From the IMG/VR virus record IMGVR_UViG_2585427793_000015, positions 1 to 28,857 of that record: a DNA stretch of 28,857 nt; one strand, given 5' to 3'. The stretch is from a virus. Lineage: Duplodnaviria > Heunggongvirae > Uroviricota > Caudoviricetes. A program made the translations under genes and the position numbers. The notes under the pieces are model-generated. The model searched no databases, was not told the DNA's origin, and saw only the letters and a program-made list of their open reading frames with translations. Below are positions 2,479 through 28,857 of this stretch, piece after piece. The number at the start of each line of letters is the position of its first letter. The stretch's first letter is position 1.

Positions 2479-3011
2479 ACGGGCGGTGATGTCTTCTCAT
2501 TGTCGCCGTCCTTATGAATATGATTGCTGAAAGATTTACCGTTGATGGTGACATCTTCAGTAAATTCACAGGGACCGACGAATTTCATTTGTTTACCGAT
2601 AATATTCAGCAATTCGTCGGCGGTGAGATTTACCGTTTTCCCTGAAACGTCTAATTGTTCCCCTGTTATTTCAATAACGCCGTTTTCCTTCAGGGTAATG
2701 TGTGATTTTCCGTCCCGGTGATACAGCCGGACGTCGCCGGGGGACAGGTCTTTAGGGCGACATCGCTTGTCCTCCACTGCGATGGCAACCAGCCCGTCAC
2801 GCCGTCCGCCAACGGCCAGCACTATGGCTTCAGAACCTTCCGGCGGAACGGAAGTAAAACCGTAATTCTGGAAGCGTTCCACGTCGTCATCGGTGGCATC
2901 TGCCAGCGTCTGGATTTGCAGGTTCTGCCGCTCCAGACTGTCAGACACCATGCGGACAATGGCACGGTCAACCATCAGCCGCAGACGGCGGGTAATTGCG
3001 CTTAATCCCAT
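2475..3011 (-). CDS. Baseplate assembly protein V / spike (Mu gp45-like)
   Basis: 178-aa ORF; pattern typical of phage baseplate V proteins (LAVGGRRDGLVAI...; C-terminal GKSF..H.H); synteny. Confidence 0.7.
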   Translation of the reverse strand: MGLSAITRRLRLMVDRAIVRMVSDSLERQNLQIQTLADATDDDVERFQNYGFTSVPPEGSEAIVLAVGGRRDGLVAIAVEDKRCRPKDLSPGDVRLYHRDGKSHITLKENGVIEITGEQLDVSGKTVNLTADELLNIIGKQMKFVGPCEFTEDVTINGKSFSNHIHKDGDNEKTSPPV

Positions 3012-8054: not shown

Positions 8055-9530
8055 TTAAAGTTTGAACTGAATCAGGCCTGCCAGCACACGCAGCTGGTTC
8101 ACCAGATTCGGGTGGCAGATAAAGTTCAGGCGGTTTTTATCACTGCTGTCGCGTGTCACCTGAAGCGTGTCCCTGTAATCGCTGAAGTTCTCCACAAGGC
8201 CCGCCGGGAGGAGTTCGGTCTGGCAGATATCCAGCAGCTCTGCGGTGCACAGCTTCGGCGTCATCACCGGCTGCCCCGCATCCAGCGAGTCCAGCACGTC
8301 ATCGTCCGCCAGCTTGTGGCGCGGATAACGGTTCGTGAAACGGTTCTTGATGATGTAACGGATACGGCCCAGCGTGGCGGGTGACTGCACATCCAGGTAC
8401 GACACATCCGCATCACCGTACTGATTAACCCGGTACATGGTGATTTCACGCTCGATGCAGACGTTATCCCCGGCGTCCACCATGTGCGTGGCAATGCCGT
8501 CATGCAGCAGCAGGTTACGTTCCGGCATATCCCAGCGAACATTACGCGCAGGCGGCAGAATGCCGGTCAGAACCAGCGTCTGAAGCGGACGCGCCGGGTC
8601 AATGGCAAGGTGATACGCTGCCGTTGCGCCGTATGACGCGGCCCACATCCACGCCGGGTGCGGTGACAGGTTGGTGCCGATACAGCTAATCAGCCAGTCA
8701 TTGCGGGTTTCACCAAACGTGCCGGTTTCCCCGTGCGTGCCACGAAACGCTGTCCACAGCTGCGCCTCCATCATTTTGAGCGGCCCCCAGCGATTCAGCA
8801 GTTCATCACGCAGGGTGTTCAGGCTTTTCGTGTCGGTGAACGGGGCGATGATATCGGTAAACCACTCCGGGCCGATGGCCGCAACGGCATCCGCCATTTC
8901 CGGTGTCCCGGTGCCGTCGGTAAACGCGGTTGCGGTCACCTTCACACCTGCCGGGAAGGCTTCACCGGTGTAGTAGTTCAGGCGAACGTCGGCACCGTTG
9001 CCGGTGACGCCGTGCCAGTTCACGGTCAGCTCCACGGTATCCGTGGCATCATCCTTCACCGCAGCGGCCACCTGCGTGGCAGGCTTTTTCGTCACCGCAT
9101 CAGCAATGGCTTTTGCAATGTTTTCCTTCGTAGCCCCGGCGCTCACGCTCACCTGAACGGACACACCGTTAATCAGCAGTGCCACCGTTCCGGCTTCAGT
9201 CGCTGTCCCCAGCACGGTCAGCGTGGCTTTTGCGGCAGCGCCTTCAGGCGCGGCAACCGGCATTGCCCAGGGTTCCGTGTACGTGTTGGCACGACGCAGC
9301 ATTTTGAGCATTTCAGCCAGCATCGACCCTTTGCCATAAAGCTGGTCTGCCTGGCTGTCACTGGTGATGCGGGTCAGTGACAGGGCGTCTGCGCTGCCGG
9401 ACGATACCGCATGGCCCATGACCAGAATTTTTCGGCCTTGCGCGGATGCACCATCCAGCGCCTGTGAATTGTCGATATCGATCCAGACAAGCGGGACGCG
9501 GATATCATCAGGAATTGAACCCAGCGACAT
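8055..9530 (-). CDS. Tail sheath protein (Mu gp39 L-like)
   Basis: ORF trimmed to Met24 (MSLGSIPDD...), which has an AAGAGGAAG ribosome-binding site 7 nt upstream; ~491 aa; followed by the tube gene. Confidence 0.85.
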   Translation of the reverse strand: MSLGSIPDDIRVPLVWIDIDNSQALDGASAQGRKILVMGHAVSSGSADALSLTRITSDSQADQLYGKGSMLAEMLKMLRRANTYTEPWAMPVAAPEGAAAKATLTVLGTATEAGTVALLINGVSVQVSVSAGATKENIAKAIADAVTKKPATQVAAAVKDDATDTVELTVNWHGVTGNGADVRLNYYTGEAFPAGVKVTATAFTDGTGTPEMADAVAAIGPEWFTDIIAPFTDTKSLNTLRDELLNRWGPLKMMEAQLWTAFRGTHGETGTFGETRNDWLISCIGTNLSPHPAWMWAASYGATAAYHLAIDPARPLQTLVLTGILPPARNVRWDMPERNLLLHDGIATHMVDAGDNVCIEREITMYRVNQYGDADVSYLDVQSPATLGRIRYIIKNRFTNRYPRHKLADDDVLDSLDAGQPVMTPKLCTAELLDICQTELLPAGLVENFSDYRDTLQVTRDSSDKNRLNFICHPNLVNQLRVLAGLIQFKL

Positions 9531-11695: not shown

Positions 11696-12598
11696 TTATG
11701 CCGGGGTGGTGATGAACGGACTGACCACGATGTCCACATCCTTGTACCAGATGTTGGAATCGCCGCCGTTAACCAGCATGGCGTCAATGATGCGCTTCGC
11801 GGCTGCACGGTTTTTCGGCCCCACCACAAGGGTGGTCGGGCGGATGCCCAGCGGTTCACCGTTGGTAGCCTTCATACCCAGCAGCAGATTGCTGGCCTTC
11901 TCGTAGTTCTCCGCTGTCAGTGCCGCACGGGAACCGACGGCGGTCTGCCAGAAGCCGAAGCCCGCATTGCAGCGACCGTCCACCCCGTAAAGGAACTCGT
12001 TATTCTTGAAGGTGTGCTCGCTGTTCAGATCATCCAGGGCTTCAAACTTAAAGGCGCGTCGCGTCTGCCAGATGATGGGTTTCAGTACCTGAGAATCATC
12101 AATCAGGAACCACGGTTCTCCCTGGTCTGATGCCGGGGTGCCGACAACGTTGCTGCAGGTGCCGTCGCCCAGCGGGTGGTCTTCATCAAAGAAGTTCTGA
12201 CCGTCAAAACACAGGGTGTTAAACCCGGCACACAGCAGGGGGTAACACAGCTTGTCCGGGAACTCCGACGTCTGGCGGCCATAGCGTTCAGCGATAATGC
12301 TGTACTGACCAATCTGATCGTCTTCAATGTGTTCGCGTTTAACGCGGATCGAACTTTCCCAGGTTTTGTTCGCAAGGGTGTAACCATAACCGTCCAGCGT
12401 TGCCATCTGACGGGCGCTGACCCATTCTTTAATCTCCGGTAAATCCTTCATCCAGCCGTAGGTATTGGAGGCGGACGAACTCGGGATTTCAGAGGCGATA
12501 CGCTGCCACTGTGGGGTGACACCACTCAGACCACGGGTATAAGCGGCGCTCAGACAGGTGGTCAGCGCGTGAAGGACTTCGGAAGTGACTGCTCCCAT
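11696..12598 (-). CDS. Major head subunit (Mu gpT-like)
   Basis: 300-aa ORF directly after the protease/scaffold gene (1-nt overlap); followed by stem-loops, as often seen after major capsid genes. Confidence 0.85.
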   Translation of the reverse strand: MGAVTSEVLHALTTCLSAAYTRGLSGVTPQWQRIASEIPSSSASNTYGWMKDLPEIKEWVSARQMATLDGYGYTLANKTWESSIRVKREHIEDDQIGQYSIIAERYGRQTSEFPDKLCYPLLCAGFNTLCFDGQNFFDEDHPLGDGTCSNVVGTPASDQGEPWFLIDDSQVLKPIIWQTRRAFKFEALDDLNSEHTFKNNEFLYGVDGRCNAGFGFWQTAVGSRAALTAENYEKASNLLLGMKATNGEPLGIRPTTLVVGPKNRAAAKRIIDAMLVNGGDSNIWYKDVDIVVSPFITTPA

Positions 12599-13560
12599 CA
12601 GTTATTCTCCTGTTTTGGTTTAGCGGCGAGGAACTCTTCCCCGGTAATACCCATGCTGCGGCACATCGCCAGTTCGGCGTCGGTCAGTGTCTGCACGGGT
12701 TTATCCTTGCCCTGGCTGGGCTTGTCGTTGTTCACCAGCGGCTGTGCACCTCTGGTGTACTCCGCAAACTGTTTGCGGCCTTCTTCCGTACGGCAGGTGG
12801 CAAGGAACATGTCACGGTTTGCCGGGGCCACTTTTCCGGCTTCGATGGCCGCATCCACAAGCGCTTCTGCTTCCTTCTCTTCCAGTTGCTGAAGGCGTTG
12901 TTCTGCGGTTTCGGCACGGTTCAGTGCCAGATTGTGGGTTTCCACCGGCACAAACTTCGTCAGGTCAGGTGTCTGTGCGCGGTTCAGCGCCACCTGTTCG
13001 TTCTCCTGAAGTTGTTTAATGGCAGCCACGGTATCGTCCACCGTGGCGGATTCAGCCAGCCCAAGCAGGCCGGTGATTTGCACAGGTACTGTCATCGGGT
13101 TTTTCTCCGTATTCAGTGCAGGAAAATCCAGGTTAGGTTTATTGGTCAGCCCGACGCTGGACAGGCGTGTCACCGCACCGTCCGCGTCAAAGAAAAACGC
13201 CGGGCTGTAATAGCGGTAGCGGCGCTCGCTCAGCATCCACCGGGCGGACTCACTCCAGACAACACGGCCTTCAATGGTGCTGCTGTCCGTCACCCGCAGT
13301 TCTTCCACCCAGCCATACGCCGGAGCATCTTCCCCCCGCGGGCCTTTAATTTCGGTGGCGTGTTCAATGTCCACCGGAATTTTGATGTCGGACGAACGGG
13401 CAACCACCTCATGTGGATTGCGGTTAATCCACGTCCGGCCATCGCGCCCGGTGAACTCACCCGCAGGGACGAGTTCAAGCCATTCCGGCAGTTGAGCGGG
13501 TGTCAGCTCATTGATGGGTTCTGGCAGGGAAAAACACAGCGCCAGCAGTTCCGGTTGCAT
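12598..13560 (-). CDS. Head maturation protease / scaffold (Mu gpI/Z-like)
   Basis: 320-aa ORF with an N-terminal Mu I protease-like region and a C-terminal coiled-coil-like scaffold region; precedes the major head gene. Confidence 0.8.
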   Translation of the reverse strand: MQPELLALCFSLPEPINELTPAQLPEWLELVPAGEFTGRDGRTWINRNPHEVVARSSDIKIPVDIEHATEIKGPRGEDAPAYGWVEELRVTDSSTIEGRVVWSESARWMLSERRYRYYSPAFFFDADGAVTRLSSVGLTNKPNLDFPALNTEKNPMTVPVQITGLLGLAESATVDDTVAAIKQLQENEQVALNRAQTPDLTKFVPVETHNLALNRAETAEQRLQQLEEKEAEALVDAAIEAGKVAPANRDMFLATCRTEEGRKQFAEYTRGAQPLVNNDKPSQGKDKPVQTLTDAELAMCRSMGITGEEFLAAKPKQENN

Positions 13561-13582
13561 GTCAGTCTCCGTCGTTTGGGGT

Positions 13583-13597
13583 TACTGACGGTCAGTA
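13583..13597 (-). promoter_or_regulatory. Palindrome TACTGAC-G-GTCAGTA in the protease I leader
   Basis: Perfect 7-bp arms, ~25 nt upstream of the I start codon. Confidence 0.35.
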
Positions 13598-13609
13598 TGC
13601 GGAAGGCAG

Positions 13610-13633
13610 AAAAAAAGCCGGATTTACCGGCTT
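13610..13633 (-). promoter_or_regulatory. Conserved dyad element AAGCCGG-N5-CCGGCTT plus T7 run, copy 2 (upstream of protease I)
   Basis: Near-identical ~40-bp sequence to copy 1 (CA.TGAAGCCGGTAAATCCGGCTTTTTTT.TGCCT.CG); centred ~64 bp upstream of the I start. Confidence 0.6.
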
Positions 13634-13656
13634 CACTGAAAACGGGAAGAATACCC

Positions 13657-13697
13657 CCTTCAAAACCCCTTCAAAAACGCCACAGCGCCTTCAAAAA
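13657..13697. repeat. Three direct repeats of CCTTCAAAA(A) in the F-I intergenic region
   Basis: Copies at 13657-13665, 13668-13677 and 13688-13697 within a 190-bp non-coding gap. Confidence 0.6.
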
Positions 13698-13750
13698 CGT
13701 CAGAATGCACATTCACGCCATCAGAATAAAAAACGCGTTTCTGATGCATT

Positions 13751-14539
13751 TCAGGGGGATTTACGGCGGGGGGGGTATTCACTGTCAAAACGGGCCTGTT
13801 TTGTCGCCAGCTGGCGCGCCAGCTCCTGCTCACGGTTTATGCCGGGATTGTAGTTCCAGCCCGGATCAATCCCTTCCGGCACATCTTCCTCTTCGCCCGT
13901 GCGTTTGTTCACCCAGCGGACAGTTCTGATTTCCGGCGCTTCGGTGTGAATGGTGCTCTGTGCCGCCAGTTGCGCATATTCACCACGGCTGACCTGACGG
14001 ATGGTGCATTTGCAGCCCCAGCCGTTAGGGGCAAAATGCGTCTGCCAGAACGGATGATCTACCGGCAGACACAGACGCGCCCATTTCACATGCTCCGCCC
14101 GGTGCTCGCGGGATGGCCCCAGCTCGTAAATCAGATACGGCATGGCCCGTTTTGTCCGCTGAATGCGTTCCCACTGGCCCGCTGCGCGGGCGGTGCGCAT
14201 GTTGGTATCAAAAATCGTGCGGAGGCGGCGGTCGCTGCCCAGCTGTACGGTGCGCGTTTCTCCTGTCAGCGGATCATCCATCTCCTGTACGCCCCACCAT
14301 CCGCGTTTTATCAGCAGCGGTTGCAGCGCCTCCCGGAACTCACTGAACGTCTGCCCGCTTTGCAGGGCGTCTTCCACAAGGGCTTTCACATCCGACAACA
14401 AATCCAGTTGCAGCATTTTTGCCACGGTGAAGCTGTTCCGGTGTTCTTCCCGCCACACATCCCGGTAATCAAAACCGGGGCGCAGCTTCTTCGCCTTCAG
14501 CCACGCCAGCGCCTCTTTCGGGATGAGGGTTTCACGCAT
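13751..14539 (-). CDS. Head morphogenesis protein, Mu F-like (SPP1 gp7 family)
   Basis: Start set to the internal ATG at 14539 (MRETLIPKE...), which overlaps the portal stop as ATGCGTGA; contains an NGWGCKCT motif characteristic of the Mu F / SPP1 gp7 family. Confidence 0.8.
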   Translation of the reverse strand: MRETLIPKEALAWLKAKKLRPGFDYRDVWREEHRNSFTVAKMLQLDLLSDVKALVEDALQSGQTFSEFREALQPLLIKRGWWGVQEMDDPLTGETRTVQLGSDRRLRTIFDTNMRTARAAGQWERIQRTKRAMPYLIYELGPSREHRAEHVKWARLCLPVDHPFWQTHFAPNGWGCKCTIRQVSRGEYAQLAAQSTIHTEAPEIRTVRWVNKRTGEEEDVPEGIDPGWNYNPGINREQELARQLATKQARFDSEYPPRRKSP

Positions 14540-16103
14540 GAGCAGTGTCTCCCAGTGCTCGCGCCTTAAAGCACACCTCTGCCAGTTGCAGGGCAAAGTC
14601 GTCCGCGTTCAGCGTTTCCTGAAGCTCAGGCAGGCGTTTCAGAAAGTCATCAAAACTGTCGCATTCCTGCGCCAGTGTCAGCACCGGGTTCGTGAACGCC
14701 TCGCCGGTTTTCTGCCAGTCACGCAGGGCATCATCCACCATCTGTGCCAGTTCGTCGGGGTGTTCCCGGTTCAGGGCGACGCGCTCACGGTTCATCGCCA
14801 TATCACCTGGCACCCCGGCGGACACCGGATGCAGAACATCAGCCCCGTCGTCCGGTTCAGCCAGGCCGAACCGGTCCCGCAGCTCCGATTCCTGAACCCG
14901 CAGCCCCCGGTCAATCAGCGGCACCAGAGCATCTGTCAGCGCCTTCAGATCTTCTGCTTCACTGATACGCAGAACAACGCGGGGATAGTGCGCCTGTGGC
15001 CCGTAGTTGGCCTCGATGTAGGGCCGCACCAGATATTCATTCAGCGTGTTAGCCAGCTGCCGCGCGTCCCAGCGCACAATGTCCATGCGCACCTGATTGT
15101 GCACGTCCGCCTGTGAACGCGAACTGCCGTTATCCGTGGTCATGGTCTGCCCCAGCACAGCCTTACTGATTTGCGCATCACACCATTCCGCCATTTCACG
15201 GAACAGTGCGCCGCCGTTATTCCGGCTGGCGGTTTCCTGCATCTCCAGTTGCATGGACTGCGGAATGGCACACCCGGCATCCGAGGCAATGGACGCAATC
15301 GCGTCAATCAGTACGCGGATTTGCTCCTCCGTGGCGTTGGGACCGTATTTCCCTACCGTAACCGGAATGCCGAACTTTTCCGCAAATGCCCACCAGTCGC
15401 GCACGGTAAAGGATTTCAGCATGTACATTACCGCCACCAGACGGGCCAGACCGTTACGCAGCGGCAGACCGGATTTCAGACGCGGCTGGTGAACAATGAA
15501 TTTTCCCGGTGTCAGCGGTACGCCATCCACCGGCTCATCGTCAGTCAGCAGGCGGAACTGGCGCAGCGTGGGCTTTTCGGCTTTCAGAAAACGGGGATCA
15601 ACCCACTCATAATCACGGGGCACCCAGTGGTTGTTGCGGGTGTTCCAGAGAATTTCACAGACCGCCACACCTTTTCCCAGCCCGTCGAGCAAGTCAAACA
15701 ACAGTTCGGGAATTTGCGGAGCGTCCATCAGCGCCCGGATGGCGTCCGCCAGCTGCACGTCGGCATCGTCATCACTGGCGGCAACCACCACCGGTTCGAT
15801 ACCGGCTACCGTCAGCTTGCGGGTGCGCAACACCGAAGCGTAATGCAAATCGCGTTCTTCCATCTCTTCGGCAAGGATAAAAAAATCACGTGTGATGCCG
15901 TCGGCGGCATTGCGCAGAATACCTGCCAGCCTGCCGGGATTCAGCCCGGAAGCGATACTGATGCCCGGCGAGGCCGAGCGCACCCCCGCCTGACGCGGAC
16001 GGGCCTGTACTTCATCGAGCCTCTCTTTTTTCAGCGTATCTTCCTCACCGGTTGCCGGGTTCAGCAGACGGCGAACGGCTCCGGCCAGTTGTTTCAGGTT
16101 CAC
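14532..16103 (-). CDS. Portal protein (Mu gp29 H-like)
   Basis: 523-aa ORF, ATGA overlap with the terminase large subunit stop; size and synteny. Confidence 0.8.
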   Translation of the reverse strand: MNLKQLAGAVRRLLNPATGEEDTLKKERLDEVQARPRQAGVRSASPGISIASGLNPGRLAGILRNAADGITRDFFILAEEMEERDLHYASVLRTRKLTVAGIEPVVVAASDDDADVQLADAIRALMDAPQIPELLFDLLDGLGKGVAVCEILWNTRNNHWVPRDYEWVDPRFLKAEKPTLRQFRLLTDDEPVDGVPLTPGKFIVHQPRLKSGLPLRNGLARLVAVMYMLKSFTVRDWWAFAEKFGIPVTVGKYGPNATEEQIRVLIDAIASIASDAGCAIPQSMQLEMQETASRNNGGALFREMAEWCDAQISKAVLGQTMTTDNGSSRSQADVHNQVRMDIVRWDARQLANTLNEYLVRPYIEANYGPQAHYPRVVLRISEAEDLKALTDALVPLIDRGLRVQESELRDRFGLAEPDDGADVLHPVSAGVPGDMAMNRERVALNREHPDELAQMVDDALRDWQKTGEAFTNPVLTLAQECDSFDDFLKRLPELQETLNADDFALQLAEVCFKARALGDTAHA

Positions 16104-17635
16104 AGTAAACCTCCCTCATTTTTCAGGCCGCGTGTCAGCTTCATCTGGCGGCGCGTGTTGCCTTCTTCCGGTTTCGCCGGGCGGTTCAGGCGGTGCAGCT
16201 CGTAACGGTGGCAGTCATCCTTACTGGCAAGGAAGCCCAGGAAAATGGCCACAGCGGCGTCGCCGTGACGCTTGCGGCCATCACTACCTTTAGTACGGGC
16301 ATCGTCAATGCCGGGAACACCACGCAGTAACTGAATGGCCCCGAGGTCATTGATCACGTCTTCATGCTTCGGAAGGATCAGCTCATCATCTTCAAACGCT
16401 GCACGGAAACGGGGCATGTTTTCGCGGTAGAACGCCACGGACAGCATCACCTGTTCCACCTCATCGCCGTACCGCTCCGCCGCCTGTTCTGCCAGATACT
16501 GACCATTCCCCCGTGCATCCATTTTGATACCGTCACGACGGGGCAGACGATCGCAAAGCCAGAACAGCACCTGCTCCTGCTGTTTAAACGGCACATTGCC
16601 AAGCTCAACCAGGAACGGCACCTCGCGGGTGGTGTCATCGTTCACCGTCACAGGGGCCAGTACGGTCAGGTCACCCGAACGCGCAAAGTCTTCCCCCAGA
16701 CAGTGGCGCAGGTTCTTCGGGAGTTTTTCCAGCTCGGGGCGCACCACCGTTTCCAGCCATTCCCGGATATCTGCCCGGCGCTGGCTTTCCGTCAGTGCGT
16801 TAAATTCCGGTGTGCCGGTAAAGCGCAACACTTTCCCGGTGCCACGGGCCGCACGTTCACGCAGTGAGCGGGGGATATACGTGCCGCCGCCGTTTTTCGG
16901 GACGCAGTAGTATTCCTCCAGGGCGTCTTCGCGGGTGGCGGTATTTCTCAGCAGACCTTCTTTCCATTCCGCCTCGGCCTCCGGTGACCACACCATGCCG
17001 CGCACCTGACAGATACGCCGGTACAGCCCGTCATTGCAGGCGTCATCCAGCGTGATGGTGTGAATGCGGTAATCCCGTTTTCCTGTGCGGCTTTCCTGAA
17101 TCAGCTGGTTAAACAGGTTGTCCACGCCGTCATGGGTGGAAATAAGGCGAATTTTGCCGCCCCATGTTTTCAGCGGCAGCACCGCCTTCAGCAGCTCGTC
17201 CAGTTTTTCATGGAACGCGGCCTCGTCGATGGTGACATTCCCCTGCATCCCGCGAATGTTGCTCGGGTTGCTGGACAGTGCCTTGACCTTAAAACCGCTG
17301 GCGAAGTACACGACGAACGTCAGAATGTCCTTGTCTTCGTCGGTGATCACTTCCTCGCAGATTTCTTCCGCTGCCGCATTAAACGCTTTCGCCCACATCG
17401 CCACGGCGTCGATAAATTCGCGGGCCATCTCCTTATTCGAACCGATATAAAAGTGATCGCGCCCGCCGAATTCCTTCTTCAGCGATGCCGTCAGTGCCGC
17501 ATCTGCCGCCTCCGCCCAGGTTAAACCGGTACGGCGGGGTTTCTCGGCAATTTTCAGGTCGGCATCATCCGCCACCCAACGTTTCTGATACGGCAGCAGA
17601 ACATCGGATTCACTGAACGTGTTCATCTGTGTCAT
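16100..17635 (-). CDS. Terminase large subunit (Mu gp28-like)
   Basis: 511-aa ORF upstream of and coupled to the portal gene; size and position. Confidence 0.8.
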   Translation of the reverse strand: MTQMNTFSESDVLLPYQKRWVADDADLKIAEKPRRTGLTWAEAADAALTASLKKEFGGRDHFYIGSNKEMAREFIDAVAMWAKAFNAAAEEICEEVITDEDKDILTFVVYFASGFKVKALSSNPSNIRGMQGNVTIDEAAFHEKLDELLKAVLPLKTWGGKIRLISTHDGVDNLFNQLIQESRTGKRDYRIHTITLDDACNDGLYRRICQVRGMVWSPEAEAEWKEGLLRNTATREDALEEYYCVPKNGGGTYIPRSLRERAARGTGKVLRFTGTPEFNALTESQRRADIREWLETVVRPELEKLPKNLRHCLGEDFARSGDLTVLAPVTVNDDTTREVPFLVELGNVPFKQQEQVLFWLCDRLPRRDGIKMDARGNGQYLAEQAAERYGDEVEQVMLSVAFYRENMPRFRAAFEDDELILPKHEDVINDLGAIQLLRGVPGIDDARTKGSDGRKRHGDAAVAIFLGFLASKDDCHRYELHRLNRPAKPEEGNTRRQMKLTRGLKNEGGLL

Positions 17636-18213
17636 GCGCTAATCCCCAGAAGTTCACGTTTGATGGTGTCAGCCGCACCACCTGACAGACCGCCCGTTCT
17701 GACCAGTTCTTCGGTTTTCTCTGCCATCTCCTGCGCAAACGCATCGCGGATCGCTTTCTCGCGTTTATGGCTGGGCATGGCTGCCGCTTCCAGACGCTGG
17801 GCAACCAGCGCCAGTTGGCCCAGCGCCTTCGGTGCAACGGGCTTGTCGTCTTCTGCCATCGACATGGACGTTTCAAAGGCCAGCGTTTTTACAAACTCCA
17901 TCAGCAGCTTGCCGACGTCTGATGTTGGCGCGGAACCCAGCTTTGCCGCCCAGACCTCGGCCATCTCGCGGGAGGCGCGGATTTTGGCCCCGACTTTTTC
18001 CATACGGCTGGCATAGCGGTTTAAGCCCGTCCGGCTTAACTGCATCTCTTCCGGCAGGTTGTGTTCGTCAATCAGGGCGTTGATGGCTTCGCGGATTTCT
18101 TCCTGCGTGTGCCGCTTTTCCCGCAGCATCTGATGTAACTGCTCCCGGATGCTGTCCGGGAGTAAATCCACTTTGGAAAGACGGCCACGGGTGGGGCGTT
18201 GTTCATTTTCCAT
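17632..18213 (-). CDS. Mu gp27-like protein (candidate terminase small subunit)
   Basis: 193-aa ORF, ATGA-coupled to the terminase large subunit; basic N-terminus (MENEQRPTRGRLSKVDLLPDSIREQL) consistent with a DNA-binding N-terminal domain. Confidence 0.55.
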   Translation of the reverse strand: MENEQRPTRGRLSKVDLLPDSIREQLHQMLREKRHTQEEIREAINALIDEHNLPEEMQLSRTGLNRYASRMEKVGAKIRASREMAEVWAAKLGSAPTSDVGKLLMEFVKTLAFETSMSMAEDDKPVAPKALGQLALVAQRLEAAAMPSHKREKAIRDAFAQEMAEKTEELVRTGGLSGGAADTIKRELLGISA

Positions 18214-18490
18214 CTTCAGACCTCTGCGTTTTCAGACCGGCGTATATTTCTTCACGAACGGACTGAATATCCTTACTTAACAGCTTCCACAGCCGCGCAC
18301 ATGCCGGTGATGATCGCAGGGCGCGTTTCATGGGGGTATCCGGTGCATCCGGGTTCCAGGGCTTTCCTGTCTGTTTTTCGTATGCACGGACAATGGCGTT
18401 TTGCTCAATATCTGCCAGCACAAGGCAGTACGCCAGTTGCCGCACGACGGCCCGTTCTCCGCGACTTAACGGCTTCAGTTTTCGGGCCAT
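18203..18490 (-). CDS. Hypothetical protein (Mu gp26 position)
   Basis: 95-aa ORF overlapping the gp27-like start by 11 bp. Confidence 0.45.
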   Translation of the reverse strand: MARKLKPLSRGERAVVRQLAYCLVLADIEQNAIVRAYEKQTGKPWNPDAPDTPMKRALRSSPACARLWKLLSKDIQSVREEIYAGLKTQRSEDGK

Positions 18491-18492
18491 GC

Positions 18493-18786
18493 TCAGTCCC
18501 TCGCACGGGGTTTTTTAACGCCCGGAACGCTGGACAGGCCGTTTGCCACATCCTCGCCGCTGCCGGTGATTTCAGCCACGTAACAGCCGCCCACATCAGA
18601 CAGACGAACCAGCCCCTGCTCGCGAAGCCATGCAAGCTGAGTGCGCACCACATCACGGGATACCTTATGACCGTAAGCCTGAAGGCAGGTCTGCAACACG
18701 GATTCATTCGCGCTGTCGCCACAGTCCAGCAGGGAACGCAGTAACACCAGACGACGGTCTTCAGTGAGGATCTCTTTCATCGCCAT
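18493..18786 (-). CDS. Hypothetical protein, possible winged-helix
   Basis: 97-aa ORF; the RTQLAWLREQGLV segment resembles a recognition helix/wing; 1-nt overlap with the upstream gene. Confidence 0.4.
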   Translation of the reverse strand: MAMKEILTEDRRLVLLRSLLDCGDSANESVLQTCLQAYGHKVSRDVVRTQLAWLREQGLVRLSDVGGCYVAEITGSGEDVANGLSSVPGVKKPRARD

Positions 18787-19091
18787 TAATTTTTTTCCTT
18801 TAACTCGTTCTCTAATAACAAATCGCTGATGCGGGATACCTGGCGGATGGATGGCCCCAGTTCTTTGATTTCTCCCCGCAGATTGCTGATATCCAGTTGC
18901 AGGCGGTGGAACTCATCACGGTCAGGTAAATGGTGTACCTGGCTTTCCATCACCGACACGCGGGAACGGAGTGAATCAAACTCTTCACGTTTGACGTAGG
19001 TTTTCGCCAGTATCAACTGAAGCAGGTTTATTCCTGTCATCAGCAATGCCCACAGAATGGGCCAGTTGGCTCTGATCATTTCCCAGGACAC
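18786..19091 (-). CDS. Membrane-anchored coiled-coil protein (i-spanin-like architecture)
   Basis: 101-aa ORF with an N-terminal hydrophobic segment (WPILWALLMTGINLLQLILA) followed by a charged helical region; architecture resembles type II inner-membrane spanin subunits. Confidence 0.4.
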   Translation of the reverse strand: MSWEMIRANWPILWALLMTGINLLQLILAKTYVKREEFDSLRSRVSVMESQVHHLPDRDEFHRLQLDISNLRGEIKELGPSIRQVSRISDLLLENELKEKN

Positions 19092-19303
19092 GTTTTCCTC
19101 CTGCGTTCCCGAATATGCTGACAGTCAATACAGGTCACCACATCCGGCAGCGCCGCAAGGCGTTGTGCCGGAATAACGTTCCCACAGTCATTGCAGCAGC
19201 CCCGACTATGGGGCGCTTCTTTTGTCCGCGTCTGCCAGGCGTTAACGACGCTCTGACGTTCGTTCATAACCACTTCACTGATGCGGTCGATTTCGTCGGT
19301 CAT
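19076..19303 (-). CDS. TraR/DksA-family C4 zinc-finger protein
   Basis: 75-aa ORF with a CxxC-N17-CxxC motif (CNDCG...CIDCQ), the hallmark of the TraR/DksA family. Confidence 0.75.
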   Translation of the reverse strand: MTDEIDRISEVVMNERQSVVNAWQTRTKEAPHSRGCCNDCGNVIPAQRLAALPDVVTCIDCQHIRERRRKTCPGK

Positions 19304-19908
19304 TTCGGCCCCGCAGAGATTTTGTGACGGCTCGATTTGCTGTACCGGGCAAAGCCGTCCATGGTTCTTACTCCGAGATAGCCCAGCGCCGGGGTAAGCA
19401 ACATCAGCGTGATATCCCAGTCCGGTGACGGCATATGCAGTGTGATACCTCTGGCACCGGCAATGGCTCCGGCAATCTGGCCACAGGAGAGCAACAGCAC
19501 ATAGGTCAGACTGCTGTAACAGGAAAGACGGGCCAGCAGCGGGCGCGTCTGGCGCACATAGCTGTCCGCAGCGTTGTCACCATTGCGGATGGTTTCCTGC
19601 TGTTCGTGATGCGCGGCCTGCTCGTCAGCCAGCACCAGCTTCTGCCGTTCCACCTCAAGCTGTTGTAACTGGACTTTCAGCGTTTCCAGTTGCATCAGTT
19701 GCTCCGGTGACAACGCCGTCAGTTGTTGTTCCAGAATGCGTTGCTGTTCGGTAACCGGCAGGCTTTCCCGGACGCTTTCCACCATACCGGCCACCGAGTC
19801 AGCGGCGGCAGATGTGCTACCACCAAACCAGCGCCCGACGGAACGAATCAGCCCCGGCCCGGCTTTCAGCAGAACAGAGGCGATGCCTGAAAGGGTTAAC
19901 GGATCCAC
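19300..19908 (-). CDS. Membrane protein with central coiled coil and C-terminal TM helices (3TM-holin-like)
   Basis: Start reassigned to GTG at 19908, which has a perfect GGAGG 6 nt upstream (TGGAGGTTTCCCGTG); N-terminal DPLTLSGIASVL segment, Gln/Glu-rich coiled coil, two C-terminal hydrophobic helices. Confidence 0.5.
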   Translation of the reverse strand: MDPLTLSGIASVLLKAGPGLIRSVGRWFGGSTSAAADSVAGMVESVRESLPVTEQQRILEQQLTALSPEQLMQLETLKVQLQQLEVERQKLVLADEQAAHHEQQETIRNGDNAADSYVRQTRPLLARLSCYSSLTYVLLLSCGQIAGAIAGARGITLHMPSPDWDITLMLLTPALGYLGVRTMDGFARYSKSSRHKISAGPK

Positions 19909-20321
19909 GGGAAACCTCCATACAGATAACGCTGAAGACAGAGCAGACCGCCGCAACTGCCACCACACAGCCAGAACACCGGATGCACCGGTGACATCAT
20001 CATCAGCGAGCCGAAGACGCAGCAGAAATATCCCAGCGCCCAGACCACCCATGACCACACGATGATGTGGCGACCAAAAGCCCGGTAACGGACCTCAGGC
20101 AGCAGGCGAAATGACGCATTCCCGAGGCTTGCGCTGTATGAAAACAACACCACCCCGGCAAAGGACAACAACATCAACACGAACGATCGCCAGCCACATA
20201 ACATGCTGATGATGAACATGCAGAGTGTCAGTCCGGCCAGCGGCCATGGCGTTCTCATCAGTCGGGAACAAATCAGCCAGTCACACGGTTTTAAAATTTT
20301 GTTCATTACCTTTTTCCACAT
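19896..20321 (-). CDS. Multi-pass small membrane protein (holin candidate)
   Basis: Start trimmed to an internal Met (MWKKVMNKIL); 3-4 predicted TM helices; start is uncertain (20321 or 20306). Confidence 0.45.
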   Translation of the reverse strand: MWKKVMNKILKPCDWLICSRLMRTPWPLAGLTLCMFIISMLCGWRSFVLMLLSFAGVVLFSYSASLGNASFRLLPEVRYRAFGRHIIVWSWVVWALGYFCCVFGSLMMMSPVHPVFWLCGGSCGGLLCLQRYLYGGFPWIR

Positions 20322-20532
20322 TGAATTTTTCCCTGTACTTCTGGCACTGCCAGAAAATGTCCCGTGTATCCACGGAGTTCCAGCCACGCATGTAGTAGCT
20401 GGCGTGTGTACCGTCATGACCGGTATAGTCCACCGGCTCTGGCGGCGGACCTCCGGCCATACGATGTAAAACCTCCTGACGCAGGCGGTCACGCCGCCCG
20501 GCTCTCAGCGAGGCATCCCAGCCTTTACCCAT
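20281..20532 (-). CDS. Hypothetical protein, coupled to the endolysin
   Basis: 83-aa ORF whose ATG lies 1 nt after the endolysin TGA (GGGGTGATATG); no TM segment. Confidence 0.4.
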   Translation of the reverse strand: MGKGWDASLRAGRRDRLRQEVLHRMAGGPPPEPVDYTGHDGTHASYYMRGWNSVDTRDIFWQCQKYREKFNVEKGNEQNFKTV

Positions 20533-20533
20533 A

Positions 20534-21130
20534 TCACCCCCGCGTGGCGGACATGATGCCTAAAGGGGTATCGATGATTTCCAGACAGGCGTCGGTCAGC
20601 TTTTCCATGCGGTTAAACCAGCCGTTCAGGTATTTACCCTGGGCGGGTTTTGACTTGATGATGTCGGCATAAAAGCGGGAACGACGGACAATGCAGCGGG
20701 CCAGCAACCAGTCCGGGGTGGACAGACTCACGGCCTTACGGGTACGCGGGCCGATGATGCCGTCAGCATCCACATCAGCGGCTTCCTGCAAAATCCTGAT
20801 AGCTTTTTTAACGCCATGCTGAACGGCTGCATCGAACACAAAGATCGCCACGCCATCAGGCCACTGATCACATCCGGCAGGCAGCCAGTAATCGCGCCAG
20901 TAAATCTGCGCGACCTGTTCGCGGGTTAAATCCCTGATGCGGGTATCCGGTTTACCGTCGCCGCTGACATCGGTTTTGCCGTCAATCACACCGTCGCGGC
21001 GGTCAGAAATGCCGTATTTGGTTTCGCCGCCACGGTCAGTGGGGTCATTGACATAGACGCCTTCGATATCGGGACGCTGAATAAAATTCAGCGCATGTTC
21101 AAAGGCCGGGGAGAATTTTTGATTTTCCAT
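20534..21130 (-). CDS. Endolysin, glycoside hydrolase family 108-like with peptidoglycan-binding C-terminal region
   Basis: 198-aa ORF with an N-terminal EGVYVNDPTDRGGETKYGIS motif (GH108 consensus EGGYVNDP.D.GG.T..GIT) and C-terminal DG.IGP.T pattern; first gene after the intergenic hairpin/T-run element. Confidence 0.8.
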   Translation of the reverse strand: MENQKFSPAFEHALNFIQRPDIEGVYVNDPTDRGGETKYGISDRRDGVIDGKTDVSGDGKPDTRIRDLTREQVAQIYWRDYWLPAGCDQWPDGVAIFVFDAAVQHGVKKAIRILQEAADVDADGIIGPRTRKAVSLSTPDWLLARCIVRRSRFYADIIKSKPAQGKYLNGWFNRMEKLTDACLEIIDTPLGIMSATRG

Positions 21131-21141
21131 AAAAGCACCTG

Positions 21142-21170
21142 TGAAGCAGATTTAAACGTGGTCTGCTTCA
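21142..21170 (-). promoter_or_regulatory. Inverted repeat TGAAGCAGA-N11-TCTGCTTCA in the endolysin leader
   Basis: Perfect 9-bp arms, 12-40 nt upstream of the endolysin ATG. Confidence 0.4.
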
Positions 21171-21185
21171 TAGTGCCGGAGGCAT

Positions 21186-21209
21186 AAAAAAAGCCGGATT
21201 TACCGGCTT
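21186..21209 (-). promoter_or_regulatory. Conserved dyad element AAGCCGG-N5-CCGGCTT plus T7 run, copy 1 (upstream of the endolysin)
   Basis: Perfect 7-bp inverted repeat with a 5-nt loop, followed on the minus strand by TTTTTTT; centred ~70 bp upstream of the endolysin ATG. Either a Rho-independent terminator closing the early operon or an activator site of a late promoter, or both. Confidence 0.6.
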
Positions 21210-21229
21210 CATTGAATTAAAAAAGATGA

Positions 21230-21709
21230 CTACTCATCACCTTTGATGGAGCAATCTATCATCATATTTTTCCCCATAGGGAGAAACTTTGTCTGAATGT
21301 GAAAGCCCAGAATCTTATACGTTAGTCCGTAACCTTTAACTTTTGCTGCGGAAGCCACCATGTCAATAACTCGTTCCTGCTGTTCTTCAGTTAATTGACC
21401 AATTACAGATTCAACAACCCGCGAACATGCAGCAAAGGAGGGCAGAGCGCCTACAGGATTATCATCAAAATCTTTTACAGTCGTCGTTGAACTAACGACC
21501 TTATTATTAATCATAAACAATCCAAACTTGCTGTGAGCAGTTTCGGTTCCACCGTTCTTAATTGAATCGCCCCCTTTAAGAGGCTTCCAGCTATTTAGTG
21601 CAATGAGGTCTTTTTCGGCCAGGCGTTTTTTGATTACCTCTTCAGAGGGCAGCTTTGCCGCATTAGCGCAAAATACGCTCAGTAAAAACATAAGAGGAAA
21701 GTATTTCAT
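21230..21709 (-). CDS. Secreted/periplasmic hypothetical protein (moron; occupies the position of Mu C)
   Basis: 159-aa ORF with a classic signal peptide (MKYFPLMFLLSVFCANA/AKLP); visibly AT-rich; start overlaps the mor stop as ATGA. Confidence 0.6.
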   Translation of the reverse strand: MKYFPLMFLLSVFCANAAKLPSEEVIKKRLAEKDLIALNSWKPLKGGDSIKNGGTETAHSKFGLFMINNKVVSSTTTVKDFDDNPVGALPSFAACSRVVESVIGQLTEEQQERVIDMVASAAKVKGYGLTYKILGFHIQTKFLPMGKNMMIDCSIKGDE

Positions 21710-22116
21710 GGCTCATCCTTAAATAGTTGCATTTGATATTTTCCACGCTCCAGCCTTCGCATTCTTTTGATGGCCTGATATACCGTTTTGTAGGTCACTT
21801 TGTAACGCTGCACCAACTCTGCTACGTTTTTTCCATCAAAATCACGCCAGATGCGCATGTCTCTGATCAGATTTTCCAGTATTTTCCCTTTCGGAACATA
21901 TACCTGAATCCCTCCGATATGATTGCAAATTGCCACTACCAGCTCAAGAGAGTGGGCAGGGTTAACACCAAGCCTTATCAGTTCCTGTCGCAGCAGAGCA
22001 TTCAGCTCTGAAAGTAGCGCCGGGTAAACATATTTTTCCTGATAATCGTGAAGATATTCCAGAACACTGTCGTCCCGGAAGTCTTCGAATAAATCCTGCT
22101 CTTTCATCTGTTTCAT
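21706..22116 (-). CDS. mor: Mor/C-family transcriptional activator
   Basis: 136-aa ORF with a C-terminal Mor/C-type HTH region (GGIQVYVPKG...IRDMRIWRDFDGKNVAELVQRYKVTYKTVYQAIKRM); ATGA-coupled to the gemA-like gene as in Mu. Confidence 0.8.
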   Translation of the reverse strand: MKQMKEQDLFEDFRDDSVLEYLHDYQEKYVYPALLSELNALLRQELIRLGVNPAHSLELVVAICNHIGGIQVYVPKGKILENLIRDMRIWRDFDGKNVAELVQRYKVTYKTVYQAIKRMRRLERGKYQMQLFKDEP

Positions 22117-28620: not shown

Positions 28621-28857
28621 TTATGCCACCTTACGAGCGTAACGGCTGGGCCAGATCTCCTCCGGCGCAACACCAATAGCATCAGCAATAATGCGCTCAT
28701 ATTTGGGGCATTTGCGGTACAGGGCATTCTTTAACGAATCCTGGTTTAAACCGGCTTCAATGGACAGAGCGCGTAAAGTAAAACCTTTTACATGCACCGC
28801 CGCGACAACATGCGCGGGGTGCCAGTCCTGCTTAACAACTTCATTTATAGACATCAT
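28621..28857 (-). CDS. ner: Ner-like DNA-binding regulator
   Basis: 78-aa ORF with Ner-family motifs (DWHPA.V.AA...G.TLRALS...G....L.NAL.R..PK.E.IIA.A.GV.PEEIWPSRY); start codon sits at the window edge. Confidence 0.8.
   Translation of the reverse strand: MMSINEVVKQDWHPAHVVAAVHVKGFTLRALSIEAGLNQDSLKNALYRKCPKYERIIADAIGVAPEEIWPSRYARKVA

Follow-up and report, generated by a model that had tools for sequence, protein, structure and literature searches.

Two nearly identical copies of a short hairpin-forming sequence precede two sets of late genes in a Mu-like prophage, and this raises the question of whether the sequence ends the transcription that reaches it, starts transcription of the genes behind it, or does both. 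The stretch analysed here, the 28,857 nucleotides of IMG/VR record IMGVR_UViG_2585427793_000015 (hereafter the window), is a Mu-like prophage of Escherichia coli with 99.7% identity to the prophage inserted in rlmB of E. coli TD225-C4. The minus strand carries all of its genes, and on this strand a repeat finder detected a 43-nt direct repeat in two copies that are identical at 39 of 43 positions, one ahead of the endolysin gene (lys) and the other ahead of the protease I gene (I). An earlier note, made by reading the letters of this DNA, had described the element and proposed that it both terminates and initiates transcription. The element is real and has two minus-strand copies, while the last two bases of the proposed consensus were wrong and the coordinates given for it covered just the core of the repeat. 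The shared part reads TCA(G/A)TGAAGCCGGTAAATCCGGCTTTTTTT(C/A)TGCCT(T/C)C(C/G)GCA, and its core consists of GAAGCCGG-TAAAT-CCGGCTTT followed by T7. The elements and the genes behind them are as follows.

21174..21216, minus strand: repeat copy 1, between the last early gene and the endolysin gene (sequence reading, repeat finder)
13598..13640, minus strand: repeat copy 2, between the head-morphogenesis gene F and the protease I gene (sequence reading, repeat finder)
21186..21210, minus strand: predicted intrinsic terminator 1, GAAGCCGG/TAAAT/CCGGCTTT plus T7, -12.6 kcal/mol; would end the early (mor) operon
13610..13634, minus strand: predicted intrinsic terminator 2, hairpin plus T7 as in terminator 1, -12.6 kcal/mol; would end the lys-to-F operon
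20534..21130, minus strand: GH108 endolysin gene, first gene of the unit that copy 1 would drive (Pfam, RefSeq annotation)
12598..13560, minus strand: Mu-like protease I gene, first gene of the unit that copy 2 would drive (Pfam, RefSeq annotation)

Our analysis indicates that each copy is likely a combined intrinsic terminator and sigma-70 promoter dependent on the activator Mor. The proposal of a terminator joined to an activator-dependent promoter was right in outline, and, to judge from the sequence, the promoter is very probably a sigma-70 promoter for a protein of the Mor/C family. Four observations carry this conclusion, namely the homology of the element to the Mu middle promoter Pm, its geometry, the pattern of its conservation, and the presence of a single Mor orthologue.

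The terminator half was the easier to recognize. A motif scan of the kind suggested in the earlier note located the dyad AAGCCGG-N5-CCGGCTT exactly twice in the window, against 0.14 occurrences expected. In each copy, the hairpin has an 8-bp stem with five G-C pairs, a 5-nt loop and a z score of about -3, and both copies were detected by a terminator scan. The G + C-rich stem, the short loop and the U-tract directly 3' of the stem are the sequence features of an intrinsic terminator, as the reading of the element as a hairpin plus U7 had implied. The hairpin centres lie 70 nt upstream of the lys ATG (21130) and 64 nt upstream of the I ATG (13560), in agreement with the distance of 64-70 bp reported previously. 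The assignment of the two copies to the positions of Plys and PI of Mu also held, since both are syntenic with these promoters.

Homology to the Mu middle promoter Pm

The Mu counterpart of the element had been taken to be a C-dependent late promoter. In the Mu genome (AF083977), the homologous sequence instead lies directly after mor, where it reads ACAGTAAAGCCGGTTAATCCGGCTTTTTTTACGTCCTCAATATCCT (ACAGTAAAGCCGGTTAATCCGGCTTTTTTT), and is annotated as the middle promoter Pm (9163-9233, 'activated by Mor') with a terminator predicted by TransTermHP inside it (9179-9200); the name and mapping of this Mu early terminator rest on the GenBank annotation, which is a prediction. Judged by this alignment, the element is the orthologue of Mor-dependent Pm together with the overlapping early terminator. 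When the 61-nt element was compared with the phage collection by blastn, Mu Pm was not among the matches, which the shortness of the match and the active low-complexity filter probably explain.

The Mor site has been described as a 16-bp sequence in which a G/C-rich hexanucleotide lies between two inverted arms of 5 bp (Ma & Howe, 2015; PMC4390567), and in Mu Pm it extends from -51 to -36 with its centre at -43.5 (Mo & Howe, 2014; PMC4287176). On the Mu sequence, AGTAA-AGCCGG-TTAAT alone fits the published description. With the Mor site placed there, +1 is position 925 of the Mu stretch (L050), the annotated Pm feature spans -62 to +10, and the -10 hexamer is TATCCT at -13 to -8; as a check on this numbering, the published -57G and -54A (PMC4390567) are indeed G and A. 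The hairpin loop is then centred at -38, and the centre of the Mor box lies 5.5 bp further upstream. The left arm of the hairpin is the G/C-rich spacer of the Mor site and the hairpin loop is its right arm, so read from the sequence the Mor dyad and the terminator dyad are distinct, overlapping symmetries. Our own initial assumption had been that the hairpin dyad is the activator site; its centre of -37/-38 did not agree with -43.5, and the published description of the Mor site settled this mismatch.

The likeness to Mu Pm extends to the same hairpin arms, the same T7 run, the same spacing between box and -10 hexamer without a -35 element or extended -10, the position following mor, and a cognate activator that resembles Mu Mor. 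The two phages differ in that Mu has one copy driving the middle operon (E18-E20 and C), whereas here two copies would drive the endolysin and head operons, in the loop and right arm (TAAAT here, TTAAT in Mu), and in the single accessory open reading frame (ORF) between mor and copy 1 of this prophage. With Plys and PI of Mu, the copies share their genomic positions upstream of the endolysin and protease I genes, a predicted terminator ahead of each, and an activator site centred at -43.5; in the case of PI, the -10 region and leader are homologous as well. However, the Mu promoters use activator C and a TTAT-N5-6-ATAA box, in place of which this prophage has a Pm-type Mor box and no C gene. 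The element is therefore already known in kind, and what is new is a duplicate instance of a well-characterized promoter-terminator module rewired onto late operons. It reveals no new mechanism and is a variant of known biology that was largely to be expected.

The predicted promoters and their putative activator

Transfer of the Mu Pm numbering to the window gave the following predicted features.

21213-21198, minus strand: predicted Mor box 1 (lys), AATGA-AGCCGG-TAAAT, 13/16 match to AGTAA-AGCCGG-TTAAT of Mu, centre -43.5
13637-13622, minus strand: predicted Mor box 2 (I), AGTGA-AGCCGG-TAAAT, 14/16 match to the Mor site of Mu Pm
21175-21170, minus strand: predicted -10 hexamer (lys), CACTAT, 22 bp past the box
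13599-13594, minus strand: predicted -10 hexamer (I), CATACT, aligned with CAAACT inside the annotated Mu PI segment
A21162, minus strand: predicted start (lys), leader of 32 nt
A13586, minus strand: predicted start (I), leader of 26 nt
21706..22116, minus strand: mor orthologue, 136 aa, the sole Mor/C-family gene in the prophage

Both boxes have the 16-bp layout of the Mor site, in which a G/C-rich hexamer is framed by 5-bp inverted arms. Both promoters have a -10 hexamer where a box centred at -43.5 would place it, with neither a -35 element nor a TGn motif; the hexamers are preceded by CGG and CCG, and TCCGGC occupies the -35 slot. A scan for consensus sigma-70 promoters upstream of lys and I found nothing. 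Scored with a matrix trained without the window's own sites, the Mor boxes reached 37.2 bits (I) and 36.1 bits (lys), while the best scores in 60 codon-block shuffles of the window averaged 10.5 bits with a maximum of 18.4 bits. Furthermore, the spacer between F and I aligned with the G-I spacer of Mu, and the alignment extends over the -10 region (CATACT here, CAAACT in Mu) and the leader. The difference between the two spacers was confined to the activator-site region, where a Mor box stands in place of the C-dependent PI annotated in Mu. This suggests regulatory rewiring in which the activator site was swapped and the core promoter was kept.

The expectation of a Mor/C-like activator was borne out as far as Mor is concerned, and no C was found. 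The Mor orthologue, encoded in the early operon as expected for the cognate activator of a Pm-type promoter, matched Pfam PF08765 (E 6.7e-30) and shared 60% identity with Mu Mor (E 9e-58) and 32% with Mu C. The helix-turn-helix segment of the protein, VTYKTVYQAIKRMRR, closely resembles that of Mu Mor (VTFNTVYKAIRRMRR) and is unlike that of Mu C (LSQPQIYQIIARQRK). tblastn searches with Mor and C detected only the mor orthologue in the window and in the entire prophage (L001 and L052), and Mu C gave no other match in the whole prophage even at E <= 1. The C box consensus of Mu late promoters is TTAT-N5-6-ATAA centred at -43.5 (quoted in PMC12867686), and no such box is present at -52 to -34 of either lys (CAATGAAGCCGGTAAATCC) or I (CAGTGAAGCCGGTAAATCC). 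For Pm, activation is known to require the C-terminal domains of the alpha and sigma subunits, which are contacted by the Mor/C-family tetramer in cryo-electron microscopy (cryo-EM) structures.

The early genes follow the order ner-like gene, transposase A, B, gam, gp16 and mor. After mor come a 159-aa ORF (21230-21709), copy 1, the GH108 endolysin gene, terminase, portal and the head-morphogenesis gene F; copy 2 follows F and is succeeded by protease I, the major head protein T, and the tail and baseplate genes. On this gene order, we infer Mor binding, the start sites and actual termination as follows. Early transcription, directed leftward on the minus strand, would pass through the transposase genes and mor and stop at the hairpin and T7 run of copy 1. 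The Mor orthologue would then bind the 16-bp box A(A/G)TGA-AGCCGG-TAAAT at both copies and, centred at -43.5, would recruit sigma-70 RNA polymerase to the -10 hexamer 22 bp downstream (CACTAT or CATACT) without a -35 element. Transcripts would begin near 21162 for the unit from lys to F and near 13586 for the unit with I, T and the head and tail genes behind them; the hairpin and T7 run of copy 2 would terminate the lys unit, and the I unit would start 24 nt past the end of this T-run. Because there is no C gene and no middle operon, the prophage would have a two-step cascade (early, late) compared with the three steps of Mu, and direct activation of the late operons by Mor is the simplest reading.

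Conservation among relatives and competing explanations

We aligned 18 sites from E. coli, Kluyvera, Pluralibacter, Brenneria, Enterovibrio, Grimontia, one metagenome contig and Mu Pm. The relatives comprised E. coli 06-00048 and ECONIH4, IMG/VR sequences, and one genome for each of six species (Brenneria salicis, B. alni, Pluralibacter gergoviae, Kluyvera intermedia, Enterovibrio norvegicus and Grimontia marina). Box positions 1, 5, 9, 11, 12, 14, 15 and 16 and the following C were invariant, as were A at position 2 and T at position 6 of the -10 hexamer and the G after it. An NANNNT hexamer was found 22 or 23 bp past the box in 18/18 sites, in the variants CACTAT, CACCAT, CATGAT, CAAAAT, TAAATT, TATCCT, CATACT, CACACT, GACACT and TATTCT. 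No covariation of the TAAAT and TTAAT variants with residues of the Mor recognition helix was evident.

The terminator was conserved differently at the two positions. The lys-proximal copy has a perfect hairpin and T7-8 in all enterobacterial relatives examined; in the Vibrionaceae relatives, a search with the enterobacterial motif did not find a lys-proximal element. The I-proximal copy is a full terminator in the window, Kluyvera and B. alni. In B. salicis (GAAGGCGG...CCGCCTT) and P. gergoviae (GAAACCGG...CCGGTTT), compensatory changes preserve the hairpin and the U-tract has decayed. At the I-proximal sites of ECONIH4, the relative L022 and three Vibrionaceae loci, the right hairpin arm and the T-run are lost, and these same five sites retain the Mor box, the -10 hexamer and the spacing between them. 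In these alignments, the parts that are always kept are the box and the -10 hexamer, and the terminator is kept after mor, where the operon must end, and is optional at I. This pattern therefore points to a promoter that also serves as a terminator rather than to a terminator alone.

An explanation by termination only, in which the copies owe their similarity to shared ancestry or gene conversion, with the late operons transcribed by read-through or from promoters elsewhere, is unlikely, although both copies are textbook hairpin-plus-T7 terminators, the compensatory stem changes in two relatives imply selection on pairing, and the promoters at the copies are predicted ones. Against it stand the five I-proximal sites that lost hairpin and U-tract and kept the 16-bp box with a correctly spaced -10 hexamer, and the invariant TWAAT loop, which terminator function does not need. 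In addition, the homologue, Mu Pm, is a promoter characterized by footprinting and mutagenesis, and the scan found no consensus sigma-70 promoter ahead of lys or I.

Less likely still is the arrangement favoured in the earlier note, with activator binding at the hairpin dyad AAGCCGG-N5-CCGGCTT centred at -43.5, TATGAA and TACTGA as -10 hexamers, and starts 20-25 nt ahead of the ATG. The hairpin dyad is perfect, Mor/C proteins bind dyads centred at -43.5, and the tetramers seen by cryo-EM cover about 26 bp, so that some contact with the right arm is possible. However, Mu numbering puts the hairpin centre at -38, and the 16-bp dyad published for Mor, which maps to A(G/A)TGA-AGCCGG-TAAAT in the window, stops at -36, the last base of the loop; the right hairpin arm is also dispensable in the five sites mentioned above. 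TATGAA and TACTGA are not kept as NANNNT in the relatives, whereas the hexamer 2-3 nt upstream is, and only CACTAT and CATACT preserve the A2 and T6 that are invariant in the 18 sites. The starts accordingly move to about 32 nt (lys) and about 26 nt (I) before the ATG in our prediction.

The distribution of the element bears on a further alternative. A blastn search found it in 51/5,426 complete E. coli genomes, solely within this prophage family, at two, four or six places per genome and at one place in a diverged subtype. Occurrence at many unrelated chromosomal sites, as expected of dispersed host repeats of the repetitive extragenic palindrome (REP) or miniature inverted-repeat transposable element (MITE) type or of generic host terminators, was not seen in these 5,426 genomes. 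An exact-pattern scan of IMG/VR gave at least 119 stretches with the element, and from those listed, 81 oriented copies were sorted by flanking genes. These flanks were mor and the GH108 endolysin gene (48/81), F and protease I (17/81), mor and Mu-type middle genes (8/81), and mor and a Mu-type endolysin gene (4/81); two more copies precede a GH108 gene with no recognizable match on the upstream side, one more follows F with no recognizable match downstream, and one has no recognizable gene on either side. All of these 81 copies with a recognizable upstream gene follow mor or F. A small mobile or recombinogenic repeat (REP/MITE-like or a mosaic-junction sequence) with no regulatory role is hardly credible. 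Copy 1 does lie at a mosaic boundary where the upstream gene differs among near-identical prophages, but the element occupies two fixed syntenic positions of Mu-like prophages only, occurs nowhere else in the E. coli genomes searched, keeps a constant orientation to the genes, and has neither flanking target duplications nor terminal repeats.

Several points weigh against a Mor-dependent promoter at each copy. The predicted -10 hexamers are weak, with 3-4 of 6 consensus matches, and the arms of the Mor boxes form a dyad at just 3 of 5 positions. The Mor box assignment draws on the descriptions in later papers combined with the Mu sequence, and the start sites, Mor binding and termination efficiency proposed for this prophage have all been carried over from Mu. 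Common descent, and not selection, could account for part of the conservation of the box at the I site, and an inverted repeat across the predicted start, described below, means that some transcripts could begin further upstream.

If each copy is nevertheless a Mor-dependent promoter fused to a terminator, starts should map near 21162 and 13586, Mu Mor should cross-activate the promoters, and box mutations should be separable from terminator mutations. In this common E. coli and enterobacterial family of Mu-like prophages, the timing of lytic genes would probably be set by one Mor orthologue acting on Pm-type boxes without a C step. For annotation of late promoters in such prophages, the motif A-N3-A-N3-C-N-GTWAATC followed after 22-23 bp by NANNNT can be used.

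Read-through RNA, the F-I spacer and other features

Besides the terminator hairpin, each promoter region contains an inverted repeat that reaches from the promoter segment into the leader.

21143..21169, minus strand: inverted repeat (lys), GAAGCAGA...TCTGCTTC, joining the -7 to +1 promoter segment to the lys leader
13569..13591, minus strand: inverted repeat (I), CCGTC...GACGG, joining -5 to -1 to the Shine-Dalgarno region (GGAG) of gene I; it covaries among relatives

In 13/13 promoters examined, the leader flanking the ribosome-binding site is complementary to the 10-nt segment from -9 to +1, and an inverted repeat of this kind is also present in Mu Pm (L050 918-949). The duplexes between an arm and its own leader averaged -10.8 kcal/mol, compared with -4.7 +/- 2.2 kcal/mol for mismatched pairs, and the RNAalifold consensus of nine I leaders contained seven pairs, 3/7 with compensatory changes. 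The inverted repeat would form only in read-through RNA because its 5' arm lies in the promoter segment. For I-type leaders, the predicted accessibility from Shine-Dalgarno sequence to AUG rose from 0.35-0.55 to 0.61-0.76 when the RNA starts at +1; the predicted effect on the ribosome-binding site was clear for I-type leaders only, not for the lys type.

These results suggest fold-back insulation against translation of read-through RNA. We consider it possible, though only tentatively, that the terminator hairpin and the covarying fold-back together make a double insulator conserved from Mu Pm to the late promoters described here. If so, read-through RNA would be terminated and the transcripts that escape would fold their ribosome-binding region away, while Mor-started transcripts, lacking the 5' arm, would be translated, and late expression would depend on where a transcript originates. 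The IS10 transposase is a known case in which fold-back inhibits translation of read-through transcripts. As in IS10, the promoter segment (-9 to +1) pairs with the leader by the ribosome-binding site and only RNA derived from upstream would fold; unlike in IS10, the function is putative here and the accessibility effect is clear only for the I-type leaders.

The F-I spacer has further features upstream of copy 2. At about 13643-13750 (minus strand), it contains three direct repeats GTTTT(T)GAAGG (GTTTTTAAACG in relatives), and further upstream a conserved block (TGTGATACGATGGCG in relatives). Upstream of copy 2, the T-tract repeats GTTTTTGAAGG have homologous counterparts in Mu, immediately to the right of where the gyrase cut site is annotated. 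Repeat motifs are present in the right arm of the strong gyrase site (SGS), and the SGS of the Mu-like prophage of E. coli O157 Sakai works in Mu (reviewed in PMC10052514). From its sequence, the F-I spacer region is probably the right arm of a Mu-type central SGS. A weak second terminator-like hairpin was also noted at 13658-13645.

Two weaker matches to the Mor box occur elsewhere in the window, one of them a candidate third box.

2599..2643 (box 2643-2628), minus strand: candidate third Mor box, AGGGA-AAACGG-TAAAT, with TATTAT 23 bp downstream, inside the gp45 baseplate gene

Its score of 18.4 bits equals the best of the 60 shuffles and is borderline. The orthologous site of ECONIH4 has retained the box in a TTAAT form, as in the other boxes of that phage, and its -10 hexamer is not clear; conservation of this candidate is confounded by the coding sequence. 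The other match, at 18479-18464, scored 16.0 bits.

The ORF between mor and copy 1 (159 aa, minus strand) had no Pfam match and is variable among otherwise near-identical prophages. Strain 06-00048 lacks it, and mor there ends with its stop codon 5 nt ahead of the box; ECONIH4, Kluyvera and Pluralibacter have a small hydrophobic ORF in its place. Copy 1 marks a mosaic junction because the gene between mor and it varies in this way. A megablast comparison of 10 kb with isolated phages gave a single weak match to a Klebsiella phage, and therefore no close cultured relative is available. No Rfam family matched anywhere in the window at gathering thresholds.

The Mor orthologue has the sequences QDLFE at residues 7-11, near its N-terminus, and QMQLF at residues 128-132, near its C-terminus. 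Both are similar to the beta-clamp-binding motifs that have recently been reported for Mor/C proteins (PMC12867686), and late transcription here may also be coupled to replication. At the right end of the prophage, outside the window (L052 4180-4500), com-like and mom-like genes stand behind a cluster of GATC sites, like the mom region of Mu, which is controlled by Dam and OxyR; no Mor box was found ahead of these genes. Finally, the sequence ATTGAAGCCGGTTT(A/T)AACCAGGATTC occurs in the ner-like gene (28736-28758, minus strand) and, in several IMG/VR relatives, about 7.3 kb past the protease start (for example, L004 17229). It shares GAAGCCGGT with the Mor box without the rest of the box, and it probably encodes a helix-turn-helix peptide motif shared by two different genes.

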